64,000 bases of DNA from Candidatus Cloacimonadota bacterium (GTDB lineage Bacteria; Cloacimonadota; Cloacimonadia; JGIOTU-2). The notes under the pieces were generated by a model that was not told the DNA's origin, made no database searches, and saw only the letters and a program-made list of their open reading frames with translations. This document shows, one piece after another, positions 33,110 through 48,001 of the stretch. The first letter of the stretch is position 1. Every line of letters starts with the position of its first letter. Location: contig JBNGBT010000005.1 in NCBI GenBank assembly GCA_049903315.1, positions 160,001 through 224,000 of the forward strand, written 5' to 3'. The translations under genes were made by a program, and so were the position numbers.

Positions 33110-34195
33110 TTAACTCCCAATATTCTTTAACAATTCTTCGTTATTCTTGGTCTTATCAATCAACTCTTTCAGTTTTACGATTGCATCTATTTTATCATAA
33201 CGCAGAAGTTCTTTCCGCAAACGGTTTATCTTCATAAGCTGATCTTCGGGAATGAGCAGTTCTTCCTTCCTCGTGCCGCTTTCCAGGATATTGATGGCAG
33301 GATACACACGCTGGTCTGCGATATCTCTATCCAGAATTATCTCACAATTGCCTGTGCCTTTGAATTCCTGGAAGATCATCTGATCCATACGCGATCCCGT
33401 ATCCGTGAGAATGGTTGCAAGTATCGTGCACGAGCCGCCATGCTGAATATTTCGCGCCAGCCCGAACAGTTTACGGGGCAGTTCCAGTGCGGACGAGCCC
33501 AAGCCGCCGGACATCGTTCTACTCTGAGGATTTCTTTCGCTGCTGTTATATGCTCTTCCCATACGGGTCAAGCTGTCCAGCAGGATGACCGTATCATGTC
33601 CGCATTCCAGTTCCACTTTGATATGGCTGATAAGAAAATTGGAGAGTGTCACATGCGAGCGCAGTCCCTGGTCAAAAGAACTGAAAAAAACCTGCACATT
33701 TGTATTTTGTTTGAAAGAAGTCACTTCTTCAGGGCGCTCATCTATGAGAAGAATGATCACGCGTACTTTGTGGTCGATATGGATAAGTGAATTTGCCATT
33801 TGCTCGAGAAGTACTGTCTTGCCTGCTCTCGGCGGGGAAACGATCAGTCCTCGTGTGCCTTTGCCAAGCGGAATCATCAGGTCGATAATGCGAAGGGAAT
33901 CATACTCGGAAGCGCCGAGTTCAAATTTTTCATCAGGATTTTCAGGCACAAGTTCCGCAAAGGGTGTACGGTTGCGGAACTCATCCGGCTCCATGTCACA
34001 AATAGAAACGATCTTCCCGATCCTTCTTCCATTGATCTCACACGTGATGCGTGCGCCGCTCACCAGCTTATACTGAGAAATGAGCCGATGGGGGAAGTCG
34101 TAATTCGGCCTGTTCCGGTCAAAAGGACTTTCCCATAAAATGGGCGTCTGATTGCCGGAGATGTCGAGTAATCCATGAAAGGTCTTAGATGTCAT
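33110..34195 (-). CDS. rho: Transcription termination factor Rho, short form
   Basis: PPRAGKT, LIDERPEEV, LLDSLTR, FQEFKGTGN, SGTRKEELL. Lacks the N-terminal helical domain. Confidence 0.88.
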   Translation of the reverse strand: MTSKTFHGLLDISGNQTPILWESPFDRNRPNYDFPHRLISQYKLVSGARITCEINGRRIGKIVSICDMEPDEFRNRTPFAELVPENPDEKFELGASEYDSLRIIDLMIPLGKGTRGLIVSPPRAGKTVLLEQMANSLIHIDHKVRVIILLIDERPEEVTSFKQNTNVQVFFSSFDQGLRSHVTLSNFLISHIKVELECGHDTVILLDSLTRMGRAYNSSERNPQSRTMSGGLGSSALELPRKLFGLARNIQHGGSCTILATILTDTGSRMDQMIFQEFKGTGNCEIILDRDIADQRVYPAINILESGTRKEELLIPEDQLMKINRLRKELLRYDKIDAIVKLKELIDKTKNNEELLKNIGS

Positions 34196-34254
34196 TGAAC
34201 CGACTTTGGTTGAGCTGAAATTGATGTCAAGAAAGGGAAGAGAAATAAACAATT

Positions 34255-34402
34255 CACCACAGAGAGCACAGAGACCACAGAGAAAAATATTTTGAGCAAG
34301 GAAAGAGAAAGGAGAATGGAGGACGGAGAACGGAGGAGTGAACCACGAAATGCACCCGGCTTCATTACATTACGCCGTGGCAGGCGAAAGAACACGAAAA
34401 AT
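34255..34402 (+). repeat. Cluster of short repeats (cacagag array, ggagaac/ggaggac heptamers, nested aaccacgaaa element)
   Basis: ccacagagagcacagagaccacagagaaaa; ggagaatggaggacggagaacggagg; aaccacgaaatgcac[ccggcttc...ggcagg]cgaaagaacacgaaaa. Confidence 0.65.
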
Positions 34403-34502
34403 AATTTCAGACTGATTTTGTTAGTTTAAATATACCAAAGAGTGTATGAGAGTAACGCAAGATTCCAATCTTGCGCAAAGGCAGTTTGACGTCACATGGT
34501 CG

Positions 34503-34706
34503 ATTGAATTCGACTCCTAAGGATTCCCGAGATACAGGGATGAAGAGGAGACCGCATAAATTTCTTCTAAAATCAAAAATCAGTGTTCATCATTCTTCAA
34601 TTAAAAAATATAGTGTAGGTGCGGGTTTATCCCGCACAAACTTCGTAGTCCAAATTGAATTCGACTCCTAAGGAGTCCCTGATTTTCGGGACGAGGAGGA
34701 GTCGAG
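34503..34706. repeat. Two copies of a hairpin element flanking a GTAG-type REP palindrome
   Basis: Exact 21-nt repeat attgaattcgactcctaagga at 34503 and 34654. Copy 2 forms tcgactcct...aggagtcga with inner gtccc...gggac. gtaggtgcgggtttatcccgcac at 34615-34637. Confidence 0.75.
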
Positions 34707-35040
34707 ACATTACTTGATACACGTTTTGGAATCCACGTTCCTTAGGATTCCACACCACATTTTTCCTCGCCCTCCGGGAGAGGTGAGTCTGCCCTGTGAA
34801 ATATAACTTGTTATTTATTTCATTTAGGGGTGAGGGCAATCCACCAATTTCTTGACAGCTTTGGAAGTAGAATTAACAAAACGAATACGATATTGAATTC
34901 ATACTGTTTTTGTGAGGAAGCTGAGCGGAGAAAAATTTTGGAAGTATCATTATGAAAAAAATTTTAAATAATTCGATAATTATTTTTGTTACGATTGTGA
35001 TTGGATATATATTTTTTATTTACTAGAGAAAAGAAAATTT

Positions 35041-35454
35041 GTGGATAATCTTACAAAAGAACAAAGAAAAAAAACAATGAGTTTAATAAGAAGTGAAGAT
35101 ACTAAGGCTGAAATAATATTACGAAAAGAACTATGGAAGAGGGGATATAGATTTAGAAAAAACTATAAAAAATTAATAGGTAAACCGGATATAGCAATAG
35201 TAAAATACAAGACAGTTATATTCTGCGACGGTGAATTTTGGCATGGAAAACATTGGGAAGAAAACAAAAAAAAAATTAACACAAATAGAGAATATTGGAT
35301 ACCAAAAATTGAGAGAAATATAAAAAGAGATAAGGAAATAAACGAAAAATTAATAAATGAAGGATGGAAGGTTTTGAGATTCTGGTCAAAGGATATAAAA
35401 AAAGAACTTGAAATGATTGCAGATGAAATAGAAAAAAAAATGAAAGAAGATTAA
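35041..35454 (+). CDS. vsr: Very-short-patch repair endonuclease
   Basis: MDNLTKEQRKKTMS, GKPDI, FCDGEFWHG, YWIPKIERNIKRD, GWKVLRFW. Confidence 0.95.
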   Translation: MDNLTKEQRKKTMSLIRSEDTKAEIILRKELWKRGYRFRKNYKKLIGKPDIAIVKYKTVIFCDGEFWHGKHWEENKKKINTNREYWIPKIERNIKRDKEINEKLINEGWKVLRFWSKDIKKELEMIADEIEKKMKED

Positions 35455-35462
35455 AGTAGCAA

Positions 35463-36518
35463 ATGAAATATACAGTAGGAAGCTTATTCGCAGGAATTGG
35501 GGGAATCTGCAAAGGATTTGAGAATGCAGGAGCTAAAATTGTTTGGGCTAATGAAATTGATAAAAATGCATGTATAACTTACAGATTAAACTTTAATCAT
35601 AAATTATATGAAGAAGATATAAATAGATTAACAAGAAAAGATAAAATAAAAAATCTACCTGAAGTAGATATAATTACATCAGGATTTCCATGCCAGGCAT
35701 TTTCAATAGCCGGATATCAAAATGGATTTGATGATCCAAGAGGAAATCTTTTTTTTGAGACAGCAAAAGTAATAGATTATTTAAGACCAAAAGCTTTTCT
35801 ATTAGAAAATGTAAAACATTTTGTAGGACACGACAAAGGTAAAACGTTTAAAGTAATTAAAAATGTAATTACAGAGGATTTAAAATATTCATTTATACCT
35901 TTTATATTGAATTCTAAGGATTTTGGAAACATACCACAAAATAGAGAAAGAATTTATATTGTTGGTTTCAAGGGGGAATCATATATAGATTATTTTTCAG
36001 ACAAATTTGATCATTATACTATAAAAGAAGAAGATAAATATAGAGAAATATTAAAGAAGAGAAAAGGTAAGAAAAGCTACACATTAAATTATTTAATACC
36101 GAAACCAATAAAACTTACAAAAAGTATAAGAGAAATAATTGATAATAAGAAAGCTGAAGATAGATTTTATTATAAAGAGAATCATAAATATTATAAAAAG
36201 CTTACAAAAGAAGTGATTTCAGAAAAAACCATCTATCAATGGAGAAGAGTTTATATAAGGGAGAATAAAAGCAATTTATGCCCAACACTAACAGCAAATA
36301 TGGGAACAGGGGGGCATAATGTGCCAATTATAAAGGATAAATGGGGTATAAGAAAACTAACGCCAGAAGAGTGTTTAAAGTTTCAAGGATTTGATAACTA
36401 CATTTTACCAAATACAGCACCATCCCATCTGTATAAACAAATAGGAAATTCAGTTACGGTACCCGTAATTGAGAGAATAGCAAAAGAGATATTACGTGTA
36501 TTAAATTTACGCGAGTGA
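35463..36518 (+). CDS. DNA (cytosine-5) methyltransferase
   Basis: Motif I LFAGIGG, IV GFPCQ, VI LENV, VIII QNRERIY, IX RKLTPEE, X GNSV. Confidence 0.97.
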   Translation: MKYTVGSLFAGIGGICKGFENAGAKIVWANEIDKNACITYRLNFNHKLYEEDINRLTRKDKIKNLPEVDIITSGFPCQAFSIAGYQNGFDDPRGNLFFETAKVIDYLRPKAFLLENVKHFVGHDKGKTFKVIKNVITEDLKYSFIPFILNSKDFGNIPQNRERIYIVGFKGESYIDYFSDKFDHYTIKEEDKYREILKKRKGKKSYTLNYLIPKPIKLTKSIREIIDNKKAEDRFYYKENHKYYKKLTKEVISEKTIYQWRRVYIRENKSNLCPTLTANMGTGGHNVPIIKDKWGIRKLTPEECLKFQGFDNYILPNTAPSHLYKQIGNSVTVPVIERIAKEILRVLNLRE

Positions 36519-36526
36519 GGTAAATT

Positions 36527-37693
36527 ATGTTCATAGATTTAATAGGCCAACAGGAAAAACAAATATACATCAAATTTCTTAAGACATTAGGAGCGCTTTC
36601 AAAGCTGTTTTCAGAAAACACTATACCATACTTAAATTATAGAGTGGCTGAAAATATATTCTGCAAAGCATTTAATGCTCATAATATATCAAGAACCGAC
36701 TGCGCATTTGATGCAAAAAAAGAAGAAATGGGGATTGGGATAAAGACCTTTTTAAACAAAAATGGAAGAACCATGCAGAAAATTGCTGAATTTAATAAGG
36801 ACAGAGCAGAATACAAAGATCTTATCGATAATCCAAAGAAGTTTATTAAATATATATCGAAATTAAGAAACGATAGAATAGAAGCAGCGAATGGTATATT
36901 ACAAACAAGCAATCATATATATCACTGTATTGCAAGGAATGAAAACAAGTTCTTAATATTTGAAGAGCAGATGAGTTATATAGATATTGATGGAATCAGA
37001 AATGTTAAAAAGACAAGATCTTCAATAGCATTTGATGATAGTGAGAATGATTATAATTTCAATTTAAGCAAAAGTACTTTATTTAAAAGATTTATTACAA
37101 ATAATCCTTTGGAAATTGATGTTTCAATAATTGATGATCCGTATGAAGAGATACTTAGATTTTTTGAGCAACAAGATATACATTTTGAAGAACCACAAGA
37201 AGAATACGAAAAGGTAATACTACCATTGTATTCAATGAAAACAAGAAAAGTGGAGGAAAGAAGCGGATTAAACCAATGGAATGCTAGAGGTAGACCAAGA
37301 GATAATAGAGAAGTTTATATACCTATACCGGTTTGGATACACAAAAAATTTCCCCTATTTTTTCCAACTATTGAAAATAGTTTCAAGCTAAAACTGCCAA
37401 ATGGAAAAGTATTAGATGCTAAAACATGCCAAACACAGTATGTAGAAATAAATGGTGAAAGATTGAATAAGGGAAAAGGATTAATGAGCAAGCCAAACAA
37501 AGATCTTGGGAAATGGATATTAGACGATGTTTTGAGAGTACCTGAAAGGAAATTGGTTACCAGGGAGATGCTTGAAAATATTGGAATTGATTCAGTAGAA
37601 ATAAGAAAAATTGATAATGAAAACTATGATCTAAATTTCAAGAAAACAAATAGTTTTGAGGATTTCTATCAGGATATGAATAATAATTTCTAA
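36527..37693 (+). CDS. Type II restriction endonuclease, NgoFVII-like
   Basis: PYLNYRVAENIFC, DA...GIGIKTF (PD-D/ExK-like), QKIAEFN, SGLNQWNARGRPR..EVYIPIP. Directly follows the C5 MTase. Confidence 0.8.
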   Translation: MFIDLIGQQEKQIYIKFLKTLGALSKLFSENTIPYLNYRVAENIFCKAFNAHNISRTDCAFDAKKEEMGIGIKTFLNKNGRTMQKIAEFNKDRAEYKDLIDNPKKFIKYISKLRNDRIEAANGILQTSNHIYHCIARNENKFLIFEEQMSYIDIDGIRNVKKTRSSIAFDDSENDYNFNLSKSTLFKRFITNNPLEIDVSIIDDPYEEILRFFEQQDIHFEEPQEEYEKVILPLYSMKTRKVEERSGLNQWNARGRPRDNREVYIPIPVWIHKKFPLFFPTIENSFKLKLPNGKVLDAKTCQTQYVEINGERLNKGKGLMSKPNKDLGKWILDDVLRVPERKLVTREMLENIGIDSVEIRKIDNENYDLNFKKTNSFEDFYQDMNNNF

Positions 37694-37812
37694 GGTTAAA
37701 CAAAACTTTATGAATTTAAATATCTGTTTAATTTATAAGAAATTTGACAAATATTGAATGTTTTAAAAAAAACCAATCTGAATTTTTTAAAAAGAATGTT
37801 AGGGGTAGAAAC

Positions 37813-38742
37813 GTGGATGTGATAAAGAAATTGATTGAAACAGATCAGGAAAAAAGAAAACTCTTTGAAGAGATAATGGAACAAAACAGAATAAAATGGA
37901 ATAATGTTTTAGAACCAGAAACAATATTTAAATGGTTAAAAAACTTTAACGGAGAAAATGAAAAAGAGTACCTATACGCGTTAAAAATTGCAAATGAGAT
38001 ATATTACTGCGACAAAAAAGGTATTGAGCAATTATGGGGATATGTTGTAAATAATAGAATGAGAGAATATATTCACGAAAAAAAATTCGCAGAATGTAAA
38101 ACTAACGAATTTATTAAAAATTATATTGAATATGTAAACAAAAGTTGTGTATTTGTTGGTTATGGAGAAGCTGGGAAAAGTGGAAATGCAATGATTTATT
38201 CGCTTAGAAATGCAATTGAAAATTCTGATTTTAATTTCTTAACATTAGATGAATTATATAGAGAGAATTTGGAAACATTTAGTTATGTAGTTCTGGTAGA
38301 TGATTTTATAGGTACTGGAAACCAAGCTACAAAAAATTGGGAAAAAAAGAGGGAAATAGATGGGGAAAAAATCAGCCTAGAGGATATTAAAAAAAAATAT
38401 AAAAATATTGAGTTTCTTTATATTGCATTAATTGCGACTAGAGAAGGAAAAAAGAAAATAGAAAAAAATACTTCAATAAAAGTATTTTGGGGAGATGTAA
38501 TTGATGAAACATATAAATGTTTTTCAGAAGTATCAAGAATATTTACTGATAGTGAAGAAAGAGAGGAAGCAAAAGAAATTATTGAAAGAAAGGGAAAATT
38601 ATTATATGAACATCCTCTTGGATATGAGAATGGGCAGTTAACAATAGCCTTTGAGCATAATACACCCAATAACTCTTTGCCGGTAATTTGGAAAAAAATT
38701 AGAAACGGTGGCTGGTTCCCACTTTTTGAGAGGAAAAAATGA
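37813..38742 (+). CDS. Phosphoribosyltransferase-like protein
   Basis: PRPP-loop VVLVDDFIGTGNQ, GKSG, C-terminal PLGY...FEHNTPNNSLPVIW...WFPLFER. GTG at 37813 follows aggggt; the ORF extends upstream to 37744. Confidence 0.8.
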   Translation: MDVIKKLIETDQEKRKLFEEIMEQNRIKWNNVLEPETIFKWLKNFNGENEKEYLYALKIANEIYYCDKKGIEQLWGYVVNNRMREYIHEKKFAECKTNEFIKNYIEYVNKSCVFVGYGEAGKSGNAMIYSLRNAIENSDFNFLTLDELYRENLETFSYVVLVDDFIGTGNQATKNWEKKREIDGEKISLEDIKKKYKNIEFLYIALIATREGKKKIEKNTSIKVFWGDVIDETYKCFSEVSRIFTDSEEREEAKEIIERKGKLLYEHPLGYENGQLTIAFEHNTPNNSLPVIWKKIRNGGWFPLFERKK

Positions 38743-40736
38743 ATTTTATATCAAACAAATTTGAAGAAAAACATCCTTTTGATGCAGTAAGAGCTGAGGA
38801 TTTTGGAGAAGATTTATTTGAGTTTTATGAACCTTTGGAGCAAATAGTTAGGAATGTTTCTGGAGTAAATATTGAAGGTAATAGACATATAATAATTGAA
38901 GGAGGCAGGGGAACTGGAAAAACAATGGTACTAAAGCATTTAGAGTTTAACATGCAATTAAAAGAATTTTTATATAAAAATGGAAATAAAAAACAAATTG
39001 AAAATATTAATAAGGAGCATATTGAAAACTTTTTAAAAAATAAAAAATTTATTGGTACTTACATACATATTAAATCAGGAGATTTTGATAATTTATGTAA
39101 TGAATTAGAGAGTCTCTTTAAACCAATATTAGTACTAAAAATTACTTATGAATTATTAAAAATACTTATTTTCTTAAAATGGAAAAATTTAATTGAATCT
39201 AAAACAGAAAAGATGATAGTTGAAAAATTTGTACAGCAGATAAAGAAGCCTTTAATTGAAAACGTTGATAATTTTGAAGATATTGAGAAGTTAATAAACG
39301 ATAAATTATTAGATTCATATAACACGATTACTAATGCATATTCAACATACAGGTTAAATGAAATAAAAAAAATGTTTGAAATGCCAATTGTATTACATAG
39401 AAATATTATTTTTAAATTATTTGATTTTATAATATCTAATGTTAAATGTTTAAATAATAAAAGAATATTTATAATTATAGATGAAGTTGAATACCTAACT
39501 GAATTTCAAACAAGATATATTACTCAACTTATAAAAGATTCTGACGATACTTCAATTACATTTAAAGTAGGCACAAGATGCCTTCCAAAAACATTAAAAG
39601 TTGGAAATACAGATGAGATTTTGAAAGAATTTGATGACTACAGAAAAATTGTAATAACAGATGCGTTGAACGCTGCACATAGCGGAACTAAAAGTCATTA
39701 TAGTAATTTAATTAAAAATATACTTAATAAAAGATTACAAAAAAGTTCATATTTTAAAGGGAAGAGAATATGTGATATTGAACAATTGATTCCAAATATT
39801 AGTATTGAAAAAGAAGCAAGAGATATTGTGAGTGGAGGAACTAAGCATTGGATAAAATTTAAAAATGAAATGACGAAATCGAAAACAAAGAGGGAGATAA
39901 ATAGTATAATTGATCATATAAAATATGATAAAAACCCATTAATTGAAAAATTAAATATGCTTTTAATATATAGAGGTTATAGCCCTAAAAAAATAAAAAA
40001 ATTGTATAAAGATTTTTTAGAAGATAAAAATAAAGAATATAAAAATTTGTATAATAAAAACGCTTTTAATCTTTTAATACAACTCTATCATGATTATAGG
40101 AAAGATAAAAGATATGCTGGAATTGACACATACATATATTTATCTTCAGGAATAACGAGGATAGCTTTAGAATTGTGTGGTGAAGCGCTAAACACTGCTT
40201 ATGTATATGGATATAAAACAGAACATGAAAAATCTATTGACATACAACAACAAAGTTATAGTGCAAAAAAAATATCTTTAAAGCAATATGATGGAATAAC
40301 AAAGATACCAAAATGGGGAATTAAAGTACAAAGCTTTATTAATCAGATAGGAACAATTTTTGATGAGATGCATAGAGATATATATTTAGTTGAACCTGAG
40401 CCAACACATTTTGAAACTGATATATCAGATTTATCTGATAAAGCATGCAATATTTTTAATGCTGCATTAAGTTACGAATATATACAAAAAAAACCATCAA
40501 TGAAACCTAAGGAAAAAGGAAAAACAAAAAGAGAAGATTTTATTATAAATAGAATATTTGCCCCGCATTTTAATATATCTTATAAAATAAGAGGAAGAAC
40601 TGTAATACCATCAGGGGAACTGGAAAAATTATTAATAGGCAATGAAGAAGAAAAAAATAAATCAAGAAAAAATATTATAAAAATGAATACTAGAAGAGAA
40701 AGAGTTTTAGAAGATCAAAGCATATTAGAGATTTAA
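38739..40736 (+). CDS. P-loop ATPase, probably ORC/Cdc6- or STAND-like
   Basis: N-terminal HPF, Walker A GGRGTGKT, Walker B IFIIIDEVE, later SSGITR motif. ATGA overlap with the PRTase gene. Confidence 0.78.
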   Translation: MNFISNKFEEKHPFDAVRAEDFGEDLFEFYEPLEQIVRNVSGVNIEGNRHIIIEGGRGTGKTMVLKHLEFNMQLKEFLYKNGNKKQIENINKEHIENFLKNKKFIGTYIHIKSGDFDNLCNELESLFKPILVLKITYELLKILIFLKWKNLIESKTEKMIVEKFVQQIKKPLIENVDNFEDIEKLINDKLLDSYNTITNAYSTYRLNEIKKMFEMPIVLHRNIIFKLFDFIISNVKCLNNKRIFIIIDEVEYLTEFQTRYITQLIKDSDDTSITFKVGTRCLPKTLKVGNTDEILKEFDDYRKIVITDALNAAHSGTKSHYSNLIKNILNKRLQKSSYFKGKRICDIEQLIPNISIEKEARDIVSGGTKHWIKFKNEMTKSKTKREINSIIDHIKYDKNPLIEKLNMLLIYRGYSPKKIKKLYKDFLEDKNKEYKNLYNKNAFNLLIQLYHDYRKDKRYAGIDTYIYLSSGITRIALELCGEALNTAYVYGYKTEHEKSIDIQQQSYSAKKISLKQYDGITKIPKWGIKVQSFINQIGTIFDEMHRDIYLVEPEPTHFETDISDLSDKACNIFNAALSYEYIQKKPSMKPKEKGKTKREDFIINRIFAPHFNISYKIRGRTVIPSGELEKLLIGNEEEKNKSRKNIIKMNTRRERVLEDQSILEI

Positions 40737-40749
40737 TAGTGGTGGAAAA

Positions 40750-41763
40750 ATGAAACTATACGAGAATTTTTCAATAAAAAGATTTGATAAATACTTGGCA
40801 GATAAAAGAAATTGGGATTTTTTTATTACTTGTACTAGTTTTGAAGATAGAAGTATCTCAGTTTCAAAGCAGTTAAAATCTTATAGTAGCAAAATTGAGA
40901 ATACAATAATTGTAAATTATCCTGAGCACGATAATAAAAATAAAAAAAAAAATAATACAAAAAAGATAATTAAAAATCTCAATGAAGTATCAAGAAACTT
41001 AATAATTTATGATACTAAGAGTGTGCTTGAACCATCGCTCGGCATCAAAGATTTTAAAGAATATATAAAAAAAAGATCAATAGAATTTAAAGAAAAAAAA
41101 ATACTTTTAGATATAAGTGTATTTACTAAACCATATTTCTTTTTATTATTAAAAATATTAAAAGAAGACTATAATGTAAATGTTGTGGATATCGTTTATA
41201 CTGAAGTATTAAATTATAATACAAACGATCAAAGAAAAGATTTATTTTCCATTGGCATAAACAGAATTGAACCTATACCGGGTTTCAATGGATCATATCA
41301 AAACGCAGAAGAAGCTTTGATTACTTTTATTGGATTTGAAGGAAATAGGTCATTACAAATATATCAACAAATTAGTCCTAAAATAATAGTAGTGGTTAAC
41401 GGAATGCCTTCTTTCCAGCCAAGCTGGCATATTATGAGTATGAAAAGGAATATAGAATTTTTAAAAGAATCAAAAGGTTATAAAAATCTATTCTATACAC
41501 CAACATATGATCCATTTGAAACAATTCGTGTATTAAAAAAAATTATAGATTTAATAATAATAGAAAATCCAAAATTAAATATTACTATTGCACCACTTAG
41601 CACAAAACCAATTTCCTTGGGAATAGCATTATATTCATTGTATCATAAAAATATAAAAGTTATCTATCCCTACCCTATTAAATATAATACAGATTCATCA
41701 AAAGGAGAGAATAAATCATGGATATATCGAATTAATTTTAATACATTACAAGAAATTTATTAA
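40750..41763 (+). CDS. Uncharacterised protein with two apparent Rossmann-like alpha/beta repeats
   Basis: Intact 337-aa ORF with RBS ggtgg. Repeated motifs SFEDRS / GFEGNRS and LLDISVFTK / IAPLSTK. Confidence 0.7.
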   Translation: MKLYENFSIKRFDKYLADKRNWDFFITCTSFEDRSISVSKQLKSYSSKIENTIIVNYPEHDNKNKKKNNTKKIIKNLNEVSRNLIIYDTKSVLEPSLGIKDFKEYIKKRSIEFKEKKILLDISVFTKPYFFLLLKILKEDYNVNVVDIVYTEVLNYNTNDQRKDLFSIGINRIEPIPGFNGSYQNAEEALITFIGFEGNRSLQIYQQISPKIIVVVNGMPSFQPSWHIMSMKRNIEFLKESKGYKNLFYTPTYDPFETIRVLKKIIDLIIIENPKLNITIAPLSTKPISLGIALYSLYHKNIKVIYPYPIKYNTDSSKGENKSWIYRINFNTLQEIY

Positions 41764-41995
41764 TAACTTAATAATTATTTATAATGAAATAAATTTTCAA
41801 TATTTATATAAAAAATAAATAAGTTAATAGTTATGAGGATAAGTTTATTATGCTTATTTAATTTATTGATAATGCTGTCTGCTGAAGTTATAACTTTGTA
41901 TAATTGACATTATCAAGATTGAAATAGATAAATGTACAATATCATTGTATATTGCTTAAACCTTATCCTAACTTATGAGAGAGGTAAGGTGACGG

Positions 41996-43231
41996 TTACT
42001 CTTCCAATCCACCCTTCACAATATCCAAGATCCTCTGTGCGAGTGTGTGCTTTGAGTCCCTGCCTTTGAATTGTACTTCGCCTTTAGCATTTATCACAAA
42101 TATCTTATTATCATCGCTCTGGAAGCCGGAATCCGATTCTTTCACATCATTGGCAACGATATAGTCTGCCTGCACCTGTTTCAGGCGTTCATAACTCTTT
42201 GCAATGAGCTGTTTCTCGTTCAATCCGTGCTCTGCCTTAAATGCAACAAGAATGGTGGCTGGTGAGAGTTTTTTCACCTTTTCAATAATTTTCTCGGTGG
42301 GGGAAAGCTCAATGCTGAATTTTTTGGATGAGGGAAGTTTGCCTTGTGCTTTTTTCTCCAATTTCCAGTCTGCAACCGCAGCAGCGCTGATGAACACATC
42401 CACATTTTTCTCTTTGAGCTTAGAGGTAACGGCATCCAGCATTTCTTCGGTAGTTTCAACCGGAATATACTCACAACCTGCAGGAGGAGTGAGTTTTGTG
42501 GGACCGCTTACCAAAATGCAGTGAGCTCCTCTGCGAACTGCATCCTTTGCCAGTGCAAAGCCCATTTTCCCGGAGCTCTTATTCGTAATGTAGCGAATGT
42601 CATCAATGTATTCAATCGTTGGTCCGGCAGTTACCAGCATAGTCATATCCTGCAAGTCCTTTTTGTAGAGTTTCTGAATGACCATTTCTACCATAGTGTC
42701 CACGCTGGCGATCTTTGCCTTGCCCTCTTCTCGTACCGGTTCGATTACATCGATGTTCGCTTTTTTCAGCTTCTCAATATTTTCCAAAATGAAGGGATTC
42801 TTATACATGCTCTCGTGCATGGCAGGCACGATCATCACAGGAATGCCAGAGCCGATGGCAGAGGTCACTGTAGAAAGCACAGGCGTATCGTCGATACCGC
42901 ATGCGATTTTGCTGAGAGAATTGCCTGTTGCCGGAGCAATGAGCATAAGATCACAACTTTCTTCGTGTTCACCAGCCAGCCAGATGTGCTCGATTTTTCC
43001 GGTTAACTCGGTTGTTACTGGATTTCCAGTAGCCCACTCGAACATTGCAGGAGTCACGAGCTTCGTTGCTTCCTGGCTCATTACCACAAATACTTCTGCG
43101 CCGTGACGCATGATTTCACGTGCTAGGTCAACACTGCGCAGGCAGCCCACGCTTCCGGTTATGCCGAGGGCAATGCGTTTGTCCTGCAGTTCCTGTTCTT
43201 TTGTACCTATTATATCTTTGCTTGGATGCAT
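41996..43231 (-). CDS. coaBC: Bifunctional phosphopantothenoylcysteine decarboxylase/synthetase, archaeal-like N-terminus
   Basis: LGITGSVG, IAPATGN, VPAMHESMY, TAGPTIE...RYITNKSSGKMG, AAAVAD, VAND. Starts MHPSKDI. Confidence 0.95.
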   Translation of the reverse strand: MHPSKDIIGTKEQELQDKRIALGITGSVGCLRSVDLAREIMRHGAEVFVVMSQEATKLVTPAMFEWATGNPVTTELTGKIEHIWLAGEHEESCDLMLIAPATGNSLSKIACGIDDTPVLSTVTSAIGSGIPVMIVPAMHESMYKNPFILENIEKLKKANIDVIEPVREEGKAKIASVDTMVEMVIQKLYKKDLQDMTMLVTAGPTIEYIDDIRYITNKSSGKMGFALAKDAVRRGAHCILVSGPTKLTPPAGCEYIPVETTEEMLDAVTSKLKEKNVDVFISAAAVADWKLEKKAQGKLPSSKKFSIELSPTEKIIEKVKKLSPATILVAFKAEHGLNEKQLIAKSYERLKQVQADYIVANDVKESDSGFQSDDNKIFVINAKGEVQFKGRDSKHTLAQRILDIVKGGLEE

Positions 43232-44379
43232 GATAACACCTCTTTTATGTCATGGATAAATTCGTTTATTACTTTTTTTGTCACTGACGGACGGAGCACG
43301 ATGCGCATGTGCTCGGTAAATAGCGAGATCGCCCAACCCTTGTCGCGCAGCGCTTCTGCAATGAGTACAATATTATATTTCGTCGAGGTCACGCCCACGA
43401 TGTTCATGGTCGGGGATTGGATCGGGCAGAGTTCATTGATCTTTGTAAGCTCGGAAATCAGGTGTTCGCGTACATGCAGACATCGTTTGATGATGTCGTT
43501 GTAGCCCTCGTAACCGAGGTAGTTCAGCATTCCCCAGACCGCAACGACCGATGCGCCGGATCGGGAACTCACAAACGTGGTTTGCGCAGTGTGTCCGCCG
43601 GAGAGATAGCTGACACACCATTCAATTTTCTTGGTCAGGTCCTTGTTTCTGAAAAGGATCCCGCCTGCAGGAATAGGGCACATGCCCATTTTATGAGGAT
43701 CGATAGTGATAGAGCTCACACCCGGGAGTGCGAAATCGAAATCCGCAACATCATAATTTAAATCCTTCATAAAGGGAATCACAAATCCGCCGAATGCCGC
43801 ATCGATATGGAGGTAGAGTTTGTGCTTAATACACAGATCTGACATTTTGGAAATCGGGTCGATCACGCCAAGTTCGGTCGTGCCTGCGATGCCAACTATG
43901 CAGAATGTGTCGTCATCGATAGCTTTCTCTGTTTCTGTGATGTCCATCTGGCGTTGCTTGGTAACTCGAACTGTTTTTACAGTAAGATTTAAAATATTTG
44001 CACTTTTATACAATGAAAAATGTGCGGTTTCGGGCACGATTATAGTATGTTTGCCGGAAAGCTCGCGGTAAGCCCAGAGTGCAAGGAAATTGGCTTCTGT
44101 ACCGCCTGTGACGATATTTCCGTAGGCATCTGGATTATGCAGCATTTTTCCCAGCATGCGAATGGATTCCTTTTCAAGTTTAACAACACCCGGGAAAAGA
44201 TTGGAATCACCAATATTTCTATCAATAAAAGTAGAAAAAAGCTCTTGAGCGAATGTGTCGGGGTAGGTGCACATGGTGCTGATCACATTGCCTTTTTTAT
44301 ATGATTTGTCGTGTTTGAGTGCGGAACGGATCAGTTCGAGCACTTCGTTTTTCGGAAGAGAAGATCTATTCATATACAT
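43210..44379 (-). CDS. mfnA: MfnA-type group II PLP decarboxylase (probably aspartate 1-decarboxylase here)
   Basis: STMCT, NIGD..LFPG, TGGTEAN, AHFS, AGTTELG..DPI, HIDAAFGG, PLP lysine in SITIDPHKMG. Located between panB and coaBC. Confidence 0.85.
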   Translation of the reverse strand: MYMNRSSLPKNEVLELIRSALKHDKSYKKGNVISTMCTYPDTFAQELFSTFIDRNIGDSNLFPGVVKLEKESIRMLGKMLHNPDAYGNIVTGGTEANFLALWAYRELSGKHTIIVPETAHFSLYKSANILNLTVKTVRVTKQRQMDITETEKAIDDDTFCIVGIAGTTELGVIDPISKMSDLCIKHKLYLHIDAAFGGFVIPFMKDLNYDVADFDFALPGVSSITIDPHKMGMCPIPAGGILFRNKDLTKKIEWCVSYLSGGHTAQTTFVSSRSGASVVAVWGMLNYLGYEGYNDIIKRCLHVREHLISELTKINELCPIQSPTMNIVGVTSTKYNIVLIAEALRDKGWAISLFTEHMRIVLRPSVTKKVINEFIHDIKEVLSCIQAKI

Positions 44380-45124
44380 GTTCCTTATCCGGATAGGTTC
44401 CGTCTTTCACTTCTTTTTTGAATGCGCTCACGCTTTGGGAAATGATCTCAAAAAGATTTGCATAACTTTTTACAAATTTAGGATGAAAATCCGGATTCAT
44501 GCCCAGCAGGTCGTTGATCACGAGCACCTGTCCATCGCAGTATCTGCCTGCGCCGATGCCGATTGTCGGGATATCTATACTTTCTGTAATCTCTTTGCCG
44601 AGAATTTCCGGAATTGATTCCAGAACCAGTGTGAATGCGCCAGCCTGCTCGATCTCCTTGGCTTCTCTCAGTAAGCGGTCGTGATCTTTCTGTTTTCTGC
44701 CCACTACTTTAAAAGATTCGTAGGTTTGCGGCAGCAGCCCGATATGTCCCTGAACTGGTATGCTGTGTTCAAACAGATAGGAGATTGTTTTCGGAAAATA
44801 TCCTTCCAACTTGATCGCATCTGCTCCTGCATCGATAAATCGTTGAGCATTTTCCAGTGCAATTTCTTTGTCAGCGTAGGAATGGATCGGCATATCTCCA
44901 ACAATAGGGAGTGAACCTGCCCCCTTTGATACTGCTTCCACATGATAGAGCATCTGTTCCATAGTAACATTTTTCGTGGTCGAATCACCTTGGAAAACCA
45001 TACCGAGACTATCTCCAACGAGAATAAGGTCAATACCTACAGATGAAAATATCTTCGCCATCTGGAAATCATAGCAGGTAAGCATGACCAATTTTTCGGT
45101 TTTCTTAAATTTTTGAATATTCAT
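44366..45124 (-). CDS. panB: 3-methyl-2-oxobutanoate hydroxymethyltransferase
   Basis: MLTCYD, ILVGDSLG, IKLEG, GHIGLLPQ, TIGIGAG, DGQVLV. Confidence 0.96.
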   Translation of the reverse strand: MNIQKFKKTEKLVMLTCYDFQMAKIFSSVGIDLILVGDSLGMVFQGDSTTKNVTMEQMLYHVEAVSKGAGSLPIVGDMPIHSYADKEIALENAQRFIDAGADAIKLEGYFPKTISYLFEHSIPVQGHIGLLPQTYESFKVVGRKQKDHDRLLREAKEIEQAGAFTLVLESIPEILGKEITESIDIPTIGIGAGRYCDGQVLVINDLLGMNPDFHPKFVKSYANLFEIISQSVSAFKKEVKDGTYPDKEHVYE

Positions 45125-45184
45125 AATTTTAGAATTACTAAACCCTAATTTCTAATGACTAATAAAATTTCAAAATCCGAATGT

Positions 45185-45409
45185 CTAATGATCATTCTTA
45201 CAGATGCCTATTTTATGCTCAAAATCTTTCTTAGATTCAGCACAATCAGCTTCAGAATAGTTAGCACCAACACTTGTTCCAGCTTTCACTAGCTGAGTAA
45301 TGAGAGGTAGTGTTATCGGATTCTGAGGAATTCTCTTTGCAAATTCGATGATATCTTCTCCGAATTTAGCTGTTCTCTCTAACAGATCATATCTCTTTTT
45401 ATCAGTCAT
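45185..45409 (-). pseudogene. Truncated four-helix-bundle (23S-rRNA-IVP/Avd-like) protein with heptamer-repeat flanks
   Basis: YDLLERT..F...QLVKAGTSVGANYSEA..AESKKDFEHKIGIC, then an early stop at 74 aa. Flanks carry ttagaaattagaaatttgtaatttgg-type repeats. Confidence 0.8.
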
Positions 45410-45460
45410 TTGTAATTTGGATTTTTATTAGAAATTAGAAATTTGTAATTTGGCATTGTT

Positions 45461-46354
45461 TTAGTATCCATATTTCTCTAAAAATTTAATCGCATCATAG
45501 AGAAATTCATTATAGGGAACAGGAATATTATGTTTTTTTGCCAGCCGTATGATCGCACCGGTAATGTAGTCCAGCTCTGTCCTTTTGCCCTTTTTCACAT
45601 CTTGATACATGGAAGAGTAATTCTTATATTGATGGAGTCGGTCTATAGTTTTGATGACCTTTTCTCTTTGAACAGGGTAGCCTTCTTTTTCTGCAACTGC
45701 AAGCACCTCATCTATCACTTTTACTACAAGAGTTCTTATTTCCGGTTTTGAGAGCATTCTTGAGCGGATCTGCAGCAGTGTGGTAAGAGGATTCACAAAC
45801 GCGTTGATCGAAAGTTTGAGCCATTCTTCCTGTTTGATATCATCAGAAATACTCGTGTCGAAGGTGCTTTTAGAAAATATTGCATACACTTTTTCTGCAG
45901 ATTTTGAATTCTCGAGCACAACTTTTCCCCATGAAGTGCGCACCTCGCCGGGACGTATGATCTCTGCGCCAATACCTGTCACTGCGCGGATGATCTCATT
46001 GGGAAGGATGTCCGTTACTTCCTCTTTTATACCGATACCATTTTGTATGAGCATGAAAACAGTGTCGTTTTTCACAATATTTTTGAGGTCTTCGAATACG
46101 GTTTTGACATCATATGCTTTCGTAGTAACGATCACAAGGGAATTCGCGGGAATCTTTTTTAATTCCCTTGTAGTGAGGACCTTACTCATAACTGTCTGGA
46201 AGCCGGACAAGAGAATTCCATTTTTTTGTATGACTTTAAAGTGATCTTTGTGGTGATGTTCCTTTTTCCCGACAAGCGTGACATCATACTCGCGTGAGAT
46301 CACAGCTGCCAGGTAGGTGCCGATTGCACCGGCTCCGATTATAATGATATTCAT
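45461..46354 (-). CDS. panE: 2-dehydropantoate 2-reductase
   Basis: GAGAIG, TTKAYD, IQNGIG, WLKLSINAFVNPLT, SSMYQD, TELDYITG. Confidence 0.93.
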   Translation of the reverse strand: MNIIIIGAGAIGTYLAAVISREYDVTLVGKKEHHHKDHFKVIQKNGILLSGFQTVMSKVLTTRELKKIPANSLVIVTTKAYDVKTVFEDLKNIVKNDTVFMLIQNGIGIKEEVTDILPNEIIRAVTGIGAEIIRPGEVRTSWGKVVLENSKSAEKVYAIFSKSTFDTSISDDIKQEEWLKLSINAFVNPLTTLLQIRSRMLSKPEIRTLVVKVIDEVLAVAEKEGYPVQREKVIKTIDRLHQYKNYSSMYQDVKKGKRTELDYITGAIIRLAKKHNIPVPYNEFLYDAIKFLEKYGY

Positions 46355-47109
46355 GATAGCTCCCTCAAGCGCTGCAAAATGAACTGCAACGCTGATTTCA
46401 GATTTTGCTGATTATCAAAATTATCGCAGATTTTCTGTAATTTTTCAGTAGAATAATTCTTCATTCCTTTGATCTTTTCAGTCATAAGCGGAACTGTGCG
46501 CACAATATTATCCACAATTGTTATCTGCGCTTTCTGTGCAGTGCGGGAGAGGGGATTGAGGTCAACAGTGATGACTTTCTTACCTGATGCCACCAGCGCT
46601 TCGGTACGGTCTCCGTCTTCAAGCGGCACGAATACAACATCCGCAATAAAAATACCTTTCTTTGAAACGATCCTGCGTTTACTTTGCAGTTCTTCGATCT
46701 GAACAGTCTCATCGTCTCCCACTCCAAGGATTTCATGAGCGCCATGCTCCTTCATGTGTTTTAAAAGTTCGTTCTCGCGTTCTTTTGTTCTGTAAAAAAG
46801 ATTTATTTCAAGCGGTGTGTTTGCAGCTTTACCCAACTCGACGATCTCGTCAGGACAGAGCGAAGCTACATTTCCATTGAGAGAAAGTACCGGATGTTTT
46901 GCAAGGAGAAGCATTGCACAGGCAGCTTCAGTAGCTCGTTCCGCAAAGGATTGGGTTTTTTCTCCAATAAGATAATCAAAGCACTCACCTCTGCCGTGAG
47001 CGATCAGACCGGCTTTTGCAACGAGCCCTTTATCAAAGCCATCAATGAGTTTTTCACGAATGTGCAGGGACTGTGCTCTGGGATGGGAATCGGGTACTTC
47101 AATTAACAT
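46351..47109 (-). CDS. Archaeal-type 4-phosphopantoate--beta-alanine ligase (phosphopantothenate synthetase, PPS)
   Basis: SHPRAQSL..RE, GLIAHGRGECFDYLIGE, SLNGN, EINLFYRT, VPLEDGDR, DLNPLSRTA, VDNIVR. Confidence 0.92.
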   Translation of the reverse strand: MLIEVPDSHPRAQSLHIREKLIDGFDKGLVAKAGLIAHGRGECFDYLIGEKTQSFAERATEAACAMLLLAKHPVLSLNGNVASLCPDEIVELGKAANTPLEINLFYRTKERENELLKHMKEHGAHEILGVGDDETVQIEELQSKRRIVSKKGIFIADVVFVPLEDGDRTEALVASGKKVITVDLNPLSRTAQKAQITIVDNIVRTVPLMTEKIKGMKNYSTEKLQKICDNFDNQQNLKSALQFILQRLRELS

Positions 47110-48001
47110 GGGGACCTCCTGTGCTGATGTCCGAAATATAGACCTTGCCGTATTCCTGAAGAATATTTCTCAATTCGTGGGCTTTTTTTGTCGGCTGAAT
47201 ACTGAAAACACTTTCGCCAAACAAAGGCATACTGCAGAGAAATCCATTTCGTTCCATTTTTTTTATAATGTCTGAGACTTGTCCGGTTGCGACTTCGATC
47301 TTCTTCACAAACCACTGTGAGAGTTCAAGAAAGCGTTCTACTGAGGGATCTTTGAGCAAAGTATCTACGCAGTTTTTTCCGAATGTATGCACCTTATCCA
47401 TCAAATTTTTATCAGAGAGGGCTTCCTTCGTTTGATAGGGACCGAAGTATAAGACAATCACTTTATAATCTTCATCGAGCGGAATGGTTTCCACTTTTCC
47501 GATGCCTGGACCACCAAATGCAACCCTAATCTCCAATCCGCCAGCAATCTCTGCCATGACTGTGCCCAATCCGCCTTTGTTTTCTACATCAGCTATATGA
47601 GCAAGCTGAAAGCACTTTTCGTCAGAAATGTCTATATTGAAAATTTTTCTTAGAGCAAGTGCCAAACTTAATGCACCGCTTCCGCTTGTTCCAAATCCCG
47701 CATTGAGAGGCATTTCCATTGTATGTTGAATGTTAATTATGTAGTTGTCTTTTATGTATTTATCAAAAAATTTATCCAAAAGCCAGTGTGTCAGTTCTGC
47801 ATCCGATCTTTCGCCATTAATGAAAACAGAAACTTCATTTTGAGATGAAGGATGCGCTTCGACTTGTGTGGTTGTTCCCCGCATCAAGTTCACGCCAGCG
47901 CCAAGAGAGCTGCTCTGCATCGGATCACTATCTATTTTTGAATAGAAAAATCCCGTAATATGATTCGGAGCCCATGCAGAAGCGGTTTTTGTATTATGCA
48001 T
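47099..48001 (-). CDS. Archaeal-type pantoate kinase (PoK, GHMP kinase family)
   Basis: APNHITGFF, LGAG, GHMP loop PLNAGFGTSGSGALS, AHIADVENKGGLG, GGLEIR...GGPG. Overlaps the PPS gene. Confidence 0.88.
   Translation of the reverse strand: MHNTKTASAWAPNHITGFFYSKIDSDPMQSSSLGAGVNLMRGTTTQVEAHPSSQNEVSVFINGERSDAELTHWLLDKFFDKYIKDNYIINIQHTMEMPLNAGFGTSGSGALSLALALRKIFNIDISDEKCFQLAHIADVENKGGLGTVMAEIAGGLEIRVAFGGPGIGKVETIPLDEDYKVIVLYFGPYQTKEALSDKNLMDKVHTFGKNCVDTLLKDPSVERFLELSQWFVKKIEVATGQVSDIIKKMERNGFLCSMPLFGESVFSIQPTKKAHELRNILQEYGKVYISDISTGGPHVN

Follow-up and report, generated by a model that had tools for sequence, protein, structure and literature searches.

A methylase-linked PRTase, ATPase and tandem CARF trio behind a type II restriction-modification system in a Cloacimonadota bacterium: a candidate nuclease-free immune cassette

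What do three tightly coupled genes for a phosphoribosyltransferase (PRTase), a P-loop ATPase and a tandem CARF protein do when they lie directly behind a restriction-modification (R-M) system? The question is raised by a 64,000-nt stretch of a Candidatus Cloacimonadota genome (contig JBNGBT010000005.1, positions 160,001 to 224,000; hereafter the window, whose own numbering is used throughout), in which the trio follows genes for a Vsr mismatch endonuclease, a C5-cytosine DNA methyltransferase (methylase) and a type II restriction endonuclease (REase). The initial annotation, made from the letters alone, had taken the trio for a stand-alone anti-phage system with the R-M genes as neighbours. 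Our tentative reading is that the trio forms the conserved part of an immune cassette that depends on a methylase and has no nuclease of its own, placed here behind a complete type II R-M system whose 5-methylcytosine (5mC) methylase would replace the cassette's own, and acting as an abortive-infection back-up. That the cassette is some defence or conflict system is highly probable.

The ATPase alignment yielded 15 genome and 80 metagenome loci, which fall into 79 clusters at 90% identity; a cluster was treated as well flanked if it held the whole trio and no less than 2 kb of sequence to either side, as 34 do, and neighbours were counted within 4 kb. Across bacteria and archaea the order of the trio is fixed, the PRTase gene lying directly upstream of the ATPase gene in 68 of the 70 clusters long enough to tell and the CARF gene downstream in 63 of 63, so that the three genes do co-occur as had been supposed. 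The notions of a self-contained trio and of R-M genes as mere neighbours did not survive the same survey: a DNA methylase is found in 32 of the 34 well-flanked clusters (C5 class in 16, beta class in 9 and gamma class in 9, two clusters holding both beta and gamma enzymes), and is therefore probably a fourth component of the cassette. A homologue of the window REase occurs in none of the 34, and of the 137 unlabelled neighbours at 35 loci, the 132 scanned with PADLOC held no REase_II-type cognate; many of these neighbours are unmatched and could include divergent nucleases. Exceptions of another sort are seen at single loci: L063 has a methyl-directed enzyme, L096 a type III Res gene in convergent orientation, L087 HNH and PLD genes, L089 a weak match to type IIG, and L069 and L085 type I specificity subunits. 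A repair gene typically comes with C5 methylases, as expected if 5mC deamination has to be repaired: HhH-GPD glycosylases are present in 12 and Vsr in 3 well-flanked clusters, and one or the other (MIG glycosylase or Vsr) accompanies the methylase at 14 of the 16 C5 loci and occurs at no other well-flanked locus. The plasmid loci reached through the CARF protein, 6 of 17 matches being inspected, all keep the order; five have an adjacent methylase bearing its catalytic motif and one a partial methylase-like open reading frame (ORF), and in one of the plasmid loci (L127) the ATPase is annotated as two pieces. Some loci depart from the usual gene sizes: the cassette C5 methylases of L022 and L029 reach about 600 aa, some 220 aa over the usual, and are perhaps fused to a glycosylase or other domain, and L067, L068 and L072 have no separate PRTase gene and longer ATPases (728-767 aa) with, perhaps, a fused effector.

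Mapped onto the CARF tree, methylase class changes only 3 times, against a mean of 24.1 after shuffling; as kin share labels, this number reflects clustering and not co-evolution. More informative is the repeated swap of partner within one methylase class, which keeps the mark but not the protein. The window CARF falls in a clade of 15 (quick tree; Shimodaira-Hasegawa-like approximate likelihood ratio test support 95), 13 of which are linked to a C5 methylase and 2 to none seen nearby. The 13 methylases represent six lineages with 22-51% identity between representatives, compared with 40-75% for the matching CARFs, and the window R-M methylase is only 22-28% identical to the others of the clade. 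With six lineages, all of the 5mC type, serving one CARF clade, it seems to be the methyl mark that matters, rather than the protein or the site. All 23 beta-class methylases with a readable motif carry SPP(Y/F) and all 10 gamma-class ones NPPF, motifs that go with N4-cytosine and N6-adenine methylation, respectively.

In the window, the likely source of such a mark, judging from its sequence, is the R-M methylase. Its motifs FAGIGG, PCQ and ENV are intact, its gene lies one gene from the trio, beyond the REase gene, and the Vsr T:G repair gene stands alongside. It groups with three plasmid NgoFVII-type R-M methylases (47-53% identity, support 100/100) and apart from all 27 cassette C5 methylases, and the REase is 43-44% identical to plasmid proteins annotated as NgoFVII family or restriction endonuclease. 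It is furthermore the only full-length PF00145 match in the genome, a second, cut C5 methylase fragment being found on a 521-bp contig. NgoFVII enzymes have a GCSGC-like specificity; GCNGC words are not under-represented in the genome (0.93 of expected), a count that says nothing about a recent insertion.

The putative reader of the mark is the third gene, which the initial annotation had suspected of being CARF-like. Although it belongs to no Pfam or NCBIfam family, its product matches 12 PADLOC CARF6 models, the best (Table 1) over residues 19-328, and its AlphaFold2 model (predicted local distance difference test, pLDDT, 95.3) is closest in fold to the tandem-CARF nuclease Can1 (6sce; Z 13.8, root-mean-square deviation (rmsd) 3.6 over 237 residues), with a two-lobed pocket. 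The CARF domains of Cam1, Csm6, Can2 and Card1 come next, and SAVED entries score Z 8.0-8.5. The CARF lobes of all top matches bind small ligands, and the modelled fold suggests that the window protein, itself without an effector domain, would likewise bind a nucleotide. Foldseek also returned CARF entries (Cam1, Csm6, Can1) at probability 1.00; the KCC transporter, USP and KaiC entries heading its PDB list were dismissed as weak (rmsd 17-22). The two-unit repeat previously read from the motifs FEDRS...LDISVFTK and FEGNRS...IAPLSTK is recovered by hhalign, which aligns the N- and C-terminal halves of a 140-row alignment over 129 columns (probability 91%, E 1.1e-6; control against a PRTase segment, E 0.37) and pairs FEDRS with FEGNRS and LDISVFTKP with IAPLSTKP; BLASTP of the halves (E 0.41) and MAFFT did not detect it. 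Relatives number 1551 at E 0.001 among 50%-identity representatives; a search with the single protein found none in viral contigs, and phage records gave two weak matches at 22.5%. When the CARF6 pocket motifs (R34, D121, YTEP, GF, NGFP, APLGTK) are compared, R34, D121, Y150, G195-F196, P220, P282 and K286 are seen to be kept.

The second gene was correctly guessed to be ORC-CDC6-like (PF24389, 259.7 bits against a cut-off of 27), and the Walker A and B motifs claimed for it are present as GGRGTGKT and IIIDEVE, with G56-R57-G58-T59-G60 and D248-E249 invariant in 57 of 57 ATPases; it deviates at 4 of 71 conserved columns. Structure prediction supports binding between the ATPase and the CARF protein: ESMFold2 gave the pair a score of 0.73, compared to 0.01 for the best control, with at least 78% of contacts shared between runs and a partner pLDDT of at least 82. 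Of 157 solved complexes 116 pass the mark applied, as do 2 of 215 mismatched pairs; these counts hold only roughly for the alignments used here. In the modelled interface, ATPase helices 130-138 and 187-205 together with P-loop residue R57 pack against the CARF inter-lobe linker 172-185. Since no sequence relative of the ATPase or of the CARF protein is among the solved structures, the model is unlikely to be reproducing a known complex.

The first gene is a PRTase-CE member, as had been supposed, matching PF24390 over profile positions 3-253 of 253 (187.6 bits, cut-off 27) and the PADLOC retron model PRTase_III-A (E 5e-47). The phosphoribosyl pyrophosphate (PRPP) loop VLVDDFIGTG noted earlier is indeed present, its DD pair being invariant in 70 of 70 aligned PRTases, and a G-x14-PNN motif is found as G-x14-PNNSLP. 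The structure model (pLDDT 94.5) shows a type I PRTase fold; uracil PRTases rank on top in the fold search, at Z 10.8 and 10.2, but in effect level with a purine PRTase (9.8). Run against PDB sequences, the PRTase profile matches a uracil PRTase (E 4.5e-4) and nothing else. The sequence deviates at only 2 of 34 conserved columns. The span first given to the gene holds as an ORF, but its start is probably GTG 37813, which is preceded 6 nt upstream by AGGGGT and yields a product of 309 aa in keeping with close relatives, mostly of 300-320 aa. By analogy with retron Eco11, the protein is a predicted effector acting on PRPP or nucleotides.

These parts can be assembled into a model in which the methylase, given its intact motifs, would place 5mC on host DNA, and chromosome breakdown by a phage would, by analogy with Metis and PUA-Cal-HAD, free mono- or short oligonucleotides containing 5mC. 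The two predicted CARF lobes would bind this ligand, and the CARF protein, docked on the ATPase as modelled, would alter the nucleotide or oligomer state of the latter. The ATPase could then license the PRTase, so that, as suggested by the related retron Eco11 effector, PRPP would be consumed or pyrimidine pools disturbed and phage replication would stall together with the cell, making the whole cassette a fail-safe for failed restriction. It is more likely that the CARF protein is the sensor, the ATPase a switch or scaffold and the PRTase the effector; of the roles first proposed, the CARF-like nature of gene 3 stands on its fold model, while the ATPase appears less as an infection sensor than as a relay. 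Neither an oligoadenylate nor a CBASS cyclase was found in the host genome (96% complete; RAMP 0/1, SMODS 0/1) or in the locus; the one Cas10-palm match in the genome proved to be a response regulator-GGEEF protein.

The methylated-nucleotide trigger is the weaker step of this reading. In the available text of two preprints, on Metis (bioRxiv 10.1101/2025.11.05.686725) and PUA-Cal-HAD (10.64898/2026.01.15.699771), m6dAMP from host DNA breakdown is sensed, and the discussion of the former, as far as seen, foresees methyl-cytosine sensing and self-encoded methylases. A Metis-like trigger is the most economical, because a sensor of methylated nucleotides needs a mark and not a given methylase or site, which is the pattern observed. 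The full proposal, in which a CARF pseudo-dimer reads a 5mC nucleotide of the cell's own degraded DNA behind any 5mC methylase and relays it via the ATPase to a PRPP-consuming effector, with sister clades reading N4-methylcytosine (m4C) and N6-methyladenine (m6A), nonetheless remains doubtful.

Several observations weigh against this reading. Two well-flanked clusters (L027, L049) have no methylase within 4 kb. With kin sharing labels, the 3 class changes on the CARF tree leave hardly any contrasts that are independent. Swaps could also stay within a class through homologous recombination among C5 methylases, or owing to a resident MIG or Vsr gene. The window CARF is off consensus at 6 of 33 conserved columns (P153V, I194, F219M, A252T, G284S, A289S), the highest count among C5-linked CARFs, the others deviating at 0-2; four of the changes (P153, F219, A252, G284) fall in pocket motifs, and P153 and G284 are invariant in 56 locus-derived relatives, although Ser284 occurs in 21 of 139 wider ones. 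The changes may reflect retuning or decay, and the protein may be drifting; it also has the longest end branch in its clade. The enrichment in defence genes that the initial annotation expected near homologues is there but only modest, with PADLOC matches at 1e-5 for 40 of 132 cassette neighbours and 7 of 41 host control genes; at 1e-30, a threshold picked afterwards, the figures are 18 of 132 and 1 of 41. Five of the 137 neighbours, three of them housekeeping genes, were omitted for size, which raises the rate slightly. Thymidylate synthase genes lie within 4 kb in 18 of 34 well-flanked clusters, the ThyX motif being preserved in 29 of 30 cases, and dUTPase genes are found in L078 and L125; the model explains neither. 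Finally, the known methyl-nucleotide sensors use PUA domains and not CARF, according to the available text on Metis (10.1101/2025.11.05.686725).

Among the alternatives, we regard as unlikely, though the best surviving, a DNA-level reader or R-M guard, in which the ATPase-CARF pair would scan DNA for missing methylation, or detect an inhibitor that a phage directs at methylase or nuclease, and then fire the PRTase, much as in BREX or PARIS. Methylase linkage in 32 of 34 clusters fits such a guard, ATPases of the ORC/Cdc6 clade are proposed, in the part of the literature available, as DNA sensors or scaffolds in BREX and HINPO, and many invariant ATPase residues lie in the C-terminal part, outside the CARF interface. 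ORC/Cdc6-clade proteins carry a C-terminal winged-helix DNA-binding domain. Reading a site or contacting a partner protein would, however, require co-evolution, whereas six methylase lineages serve one CARF clade and one of the serving enzymes is the distant R-M methylase; moreover, the CARF lobes of all top fold matches bind small ligands.

The thymidylate genes suggest a second alternative, to which we give little probability: a pyrimidine-pool monitor, in which the CARF protein senses dUMP or another uracil-containing nucleotide whose level rises as phages remodel thymidine metabolism. ThyX and dUTPase would then fix the threshold or compensate for leak of the effector, and the methylase would serve some other purpose. 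The frequency of thymidylate synthase, the intact ThyX motifs, the two dUTPase genes and the uracil PRTase as sole PDB sequence match all speak for it. Thymidylate synthase is nevertheless absent from 16 of 34 loci and from the window locus, against just 2 of 34 loci that lack a methylase; the fold search does not separate uracil from purine PRTases; and the fact that methylase class follows the CARF tree is left unexplained.

Thymidine-metabolism genes adjoin the cassette in about half of the loci, ThyX for example in L012, L018-L023, L027, L044, L069 and L124, ThyA in L024 and L054, and thymidylate kinase in L010. The host has a tandem two-domain ThyX in one 468-aa frame (L119, G000:C55:48730-49998) about 150 kb from the window cassette, and a 473-aa ThyX-like protein is encoded beside the cassette in L079. 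We considered and rejected a restriction of thymidylate genes to cytosine methylases. It holds among the ATPase-anchored loci, where ThyX accompanies 10 of 23 methylases with the SPP motif and 0 of 10 with NPPF, but the NPPF enzymes form a single clade, and in L125 a dUTPase gene stands with a methylase of the NPPF type.

A third alternative concerns the history of the window copy, which may have lost its own methylase and be decaying or dormant, with an independent R-M system beside it because defence genes gather at the site. The six genes lie in a block of low GC content (22-29% over 35001-42000, 33-48% in the remainder of the window), in line with the AT-rich island downstream of Vsr, methylase and REase described at the outset. 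A search of 40 related genomes, which include 10 congeners and of which some are incomplete, did not find the ATPase. In congener G003 only about 100 bp separate coaBC from the rho-family gene, and in congener G008 (L112:1769-5242) the site is filled by the gene of a 919-aa NPPF-motif protein, which we take to be an MmeI-like restriction-methylase, and by two small membrane proteins; in three further congeners a peptidase gene adjoins coaBC. The empty site and the different cargo imply acquisition of the six-gene block at a variable site which, given the G008 cargo, appears to be a defence site.

That a congener holds another R-M-like gene there, that the window methylase is not of cassette origin, that the CARF protein is off consensus at 6 of 33 columns with a long end branch and that 119 nt separate the REase gene from the likelier PRTase start are all compatible with chance neighbours. 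On the other hand, the trio has kept three intact frames on the forward strand (332 aa from TTG, 665 aa and 337 aa), coupled as initially described by a 4-nt ATGA overlap between PRTase and ATPase genes and a 13-nt gap before the CARF gene. The PRTase and ATPase deviate at few conserved columns, Ser284 recurs in wider CARF relatives, and an adjoining 5mC methylase with a T:G repair gene is just what the clade predicts. We judge this account improbable. A mere addiction module, in which methylation would be diluted in cells that have lost the island and the trio would kill them, with no part played against phages, would suit the patchy, mobile, partly plasmid-borne distribution and the toxic type of effector, and is very improbable, given that related PRTase effectors work in phage defence, as far as the available sources tell, and that three proteins make an elaborate sensor chain for a pure addiction function.

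Returning to the cassette reading, we asked how far it is new. No named system matched the trio in PADLOC 2.0 or NCBIfam 20.0, in agreement with the initial annotation, and literature searches, whose coverage excluded key papers on the families, found no paper describing or testing it. The Pfam names PRTase-CE and ORC-CDC6-like reportedly come from Nicastro et al. 2023 (Nucleic Acids Research), and the CARF6 class is said to stem from Makarova et al. 2020 (same journal). All three domain families are already catalogued, and an earlier computational description of the cassette is likely; new here is an R-M-coupled copy from which the cassette's own methylase and ThyX are gone. The window shares with the catalogued cassette of methylase, PF24390, PF24389 and CARF6 the three families, their order, a 5mC methylase and a T:G repair gene. 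In place of the orphan methylase of cassette lineage, the ThyX and the MIG glycosylase, it has a full Vsr-methylase-NgoFVII REase unit, with a methylase of R-M type beside its REase, and its CARF pocket motifs are altered. The trio is not described in the available passages of Makarova 2014 (PMC4012209) or of the BREX and ParA papers.

The proposed likeness to Metis and PUA-Cal-HAD, in so far as those sources could be consulted, lies in a methylated nucleotide of degraded host DNA triggering a nucleotide-depleting effector, with homologues beside methylases; those systems rely on a PUA-like sensor, on m6dAMP as the signal and on effectors of the calcineurin-like or HAD type, whereas the six window genes belong to other families, and the Metis main text (10.1101/2025.11.05.686725) contains the words CARF, ATPase and phosphoribosyl 0 times. 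With the type III-A retron Eco11, activation of whose PRTase effector is reported in the text available to lower PRPP by about 50% (PMC12746101), the window PRTase shares the PRPP loop and the G-x14-PNN motif; predicted control by the ATPase and the CARF protein takes the place of msDNA, with no reverse transcriptase among the six genes and 0 Rfam matches in the island, although a divergent msr-msd RNA could escape. Can1 (6sce, Z 13.8) and other type III CRISPR CARF effectors likewise combine a pair of CARF lobes in a single chain; unlike these effectors and CBASS SAVED proteins, the window CARF carries no nuclease or other effector domain, and no cyclase was found in locus or host. Among other PRTase systems, ShosTA is said to have a DprA-like antitoxin as partner, unlike the trio. 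DS-32 (10.1101/2025.01.08.631726), ShosTA and Ophion are, in the parts of the sources available, tested anti-phage systems with a PRTase. The DS-32 partner is NADAR, of which there is no gene among the six, and the DS-32 PRTase model NF053875 scores 15.9 bits against a cut-off of 250; the Ophion partners, radical SAM and PHP proteins, as far as described, are also unlike the trio.

Table 1. Positions in the window of the inserted stretch and its six genes.
Feature	Position	Strand	Evidence
Vsr T:G mismatch endonuclease, operon's first gene	35041..35454	+	TIGR00632 E 9e-44; PF03852
C5-cytosine DNA methyltransferase, NgoFVII-type R-M	35463..36518	+	PF00145 E 3e-83
Type II restriction endonuclease, NgoFVII family	36527..37693	+	PADLOC REase_II E 1e-92
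PRTase-CE, predicted effector	37813..38742 (ORF reaches TTG 37744)	+	PF24390 E 5e-55
ORC-CDC6-like P-loop ATPase, predicted switch or CARF-binding scaffold	38739..40736	+	PF24389 E 8e-77; Walker A/B; modelled complex with gene 3
Tandem CARF protein, CARF6 class, predicted nucleotide sensor	40750..41763	+	PADLOC CARF6--CARF_CARF_CARF E 1e-55
Inserted stretch with six-gene low-GC operon, rho-family gene to coaBC	34253..41995	.	Congener comparison

Around the operon, the leader 5' of vsr, which is partly present at the congener's filled site as well, holds a short imperfect palindrome twice (34490-34560 and 34650-34700), one copy scoring terminator-like; promoter and terminator scans gave chance-level counts (43 vs 50). 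Upstream, 33110-34252 encodes a short Rho-family protein of 380 aa that is devoid of the usual N-terminal part and matches both Rho and 'short form' models. Downstream, on the reverse strand (41996-48001), an archaeal-type coenzyme A pathway cluster stands in bacterial-looking surroundings, with genes for a pantoate kinase-like protein, a 4-phosphopantoate--beta-alanine ligase and an MfnA-like decarboxylase (both above cut-off), panE, panB and coaBC. CoaBC is 85-90% identical across 10 of 10 congeners and was found in only 1 of 10 other family genomes, a distribution that suggests a genus-level transfer from archaea.

If the cassette reading is true, it would provide a ligand and a job for a class of CARF proteins that works without any cyclase, and would carry the sensing of genome degradation beyond adenine marks to cytosine ones, a step that the Metis authors foresaw in the text available. 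The CARF clades with 5mC, probable m4C and probable m6A methylases would serve as ready specificity controls, and, because its methylase stems from an R-M system, the window locus is a natural swap experiment between the need for a methyl mark and the need for a cassette's own methylase. Overall, methylation by R-M systems would double as a danger signal, an ordinary type II system being the signal source for an abortive back-up.

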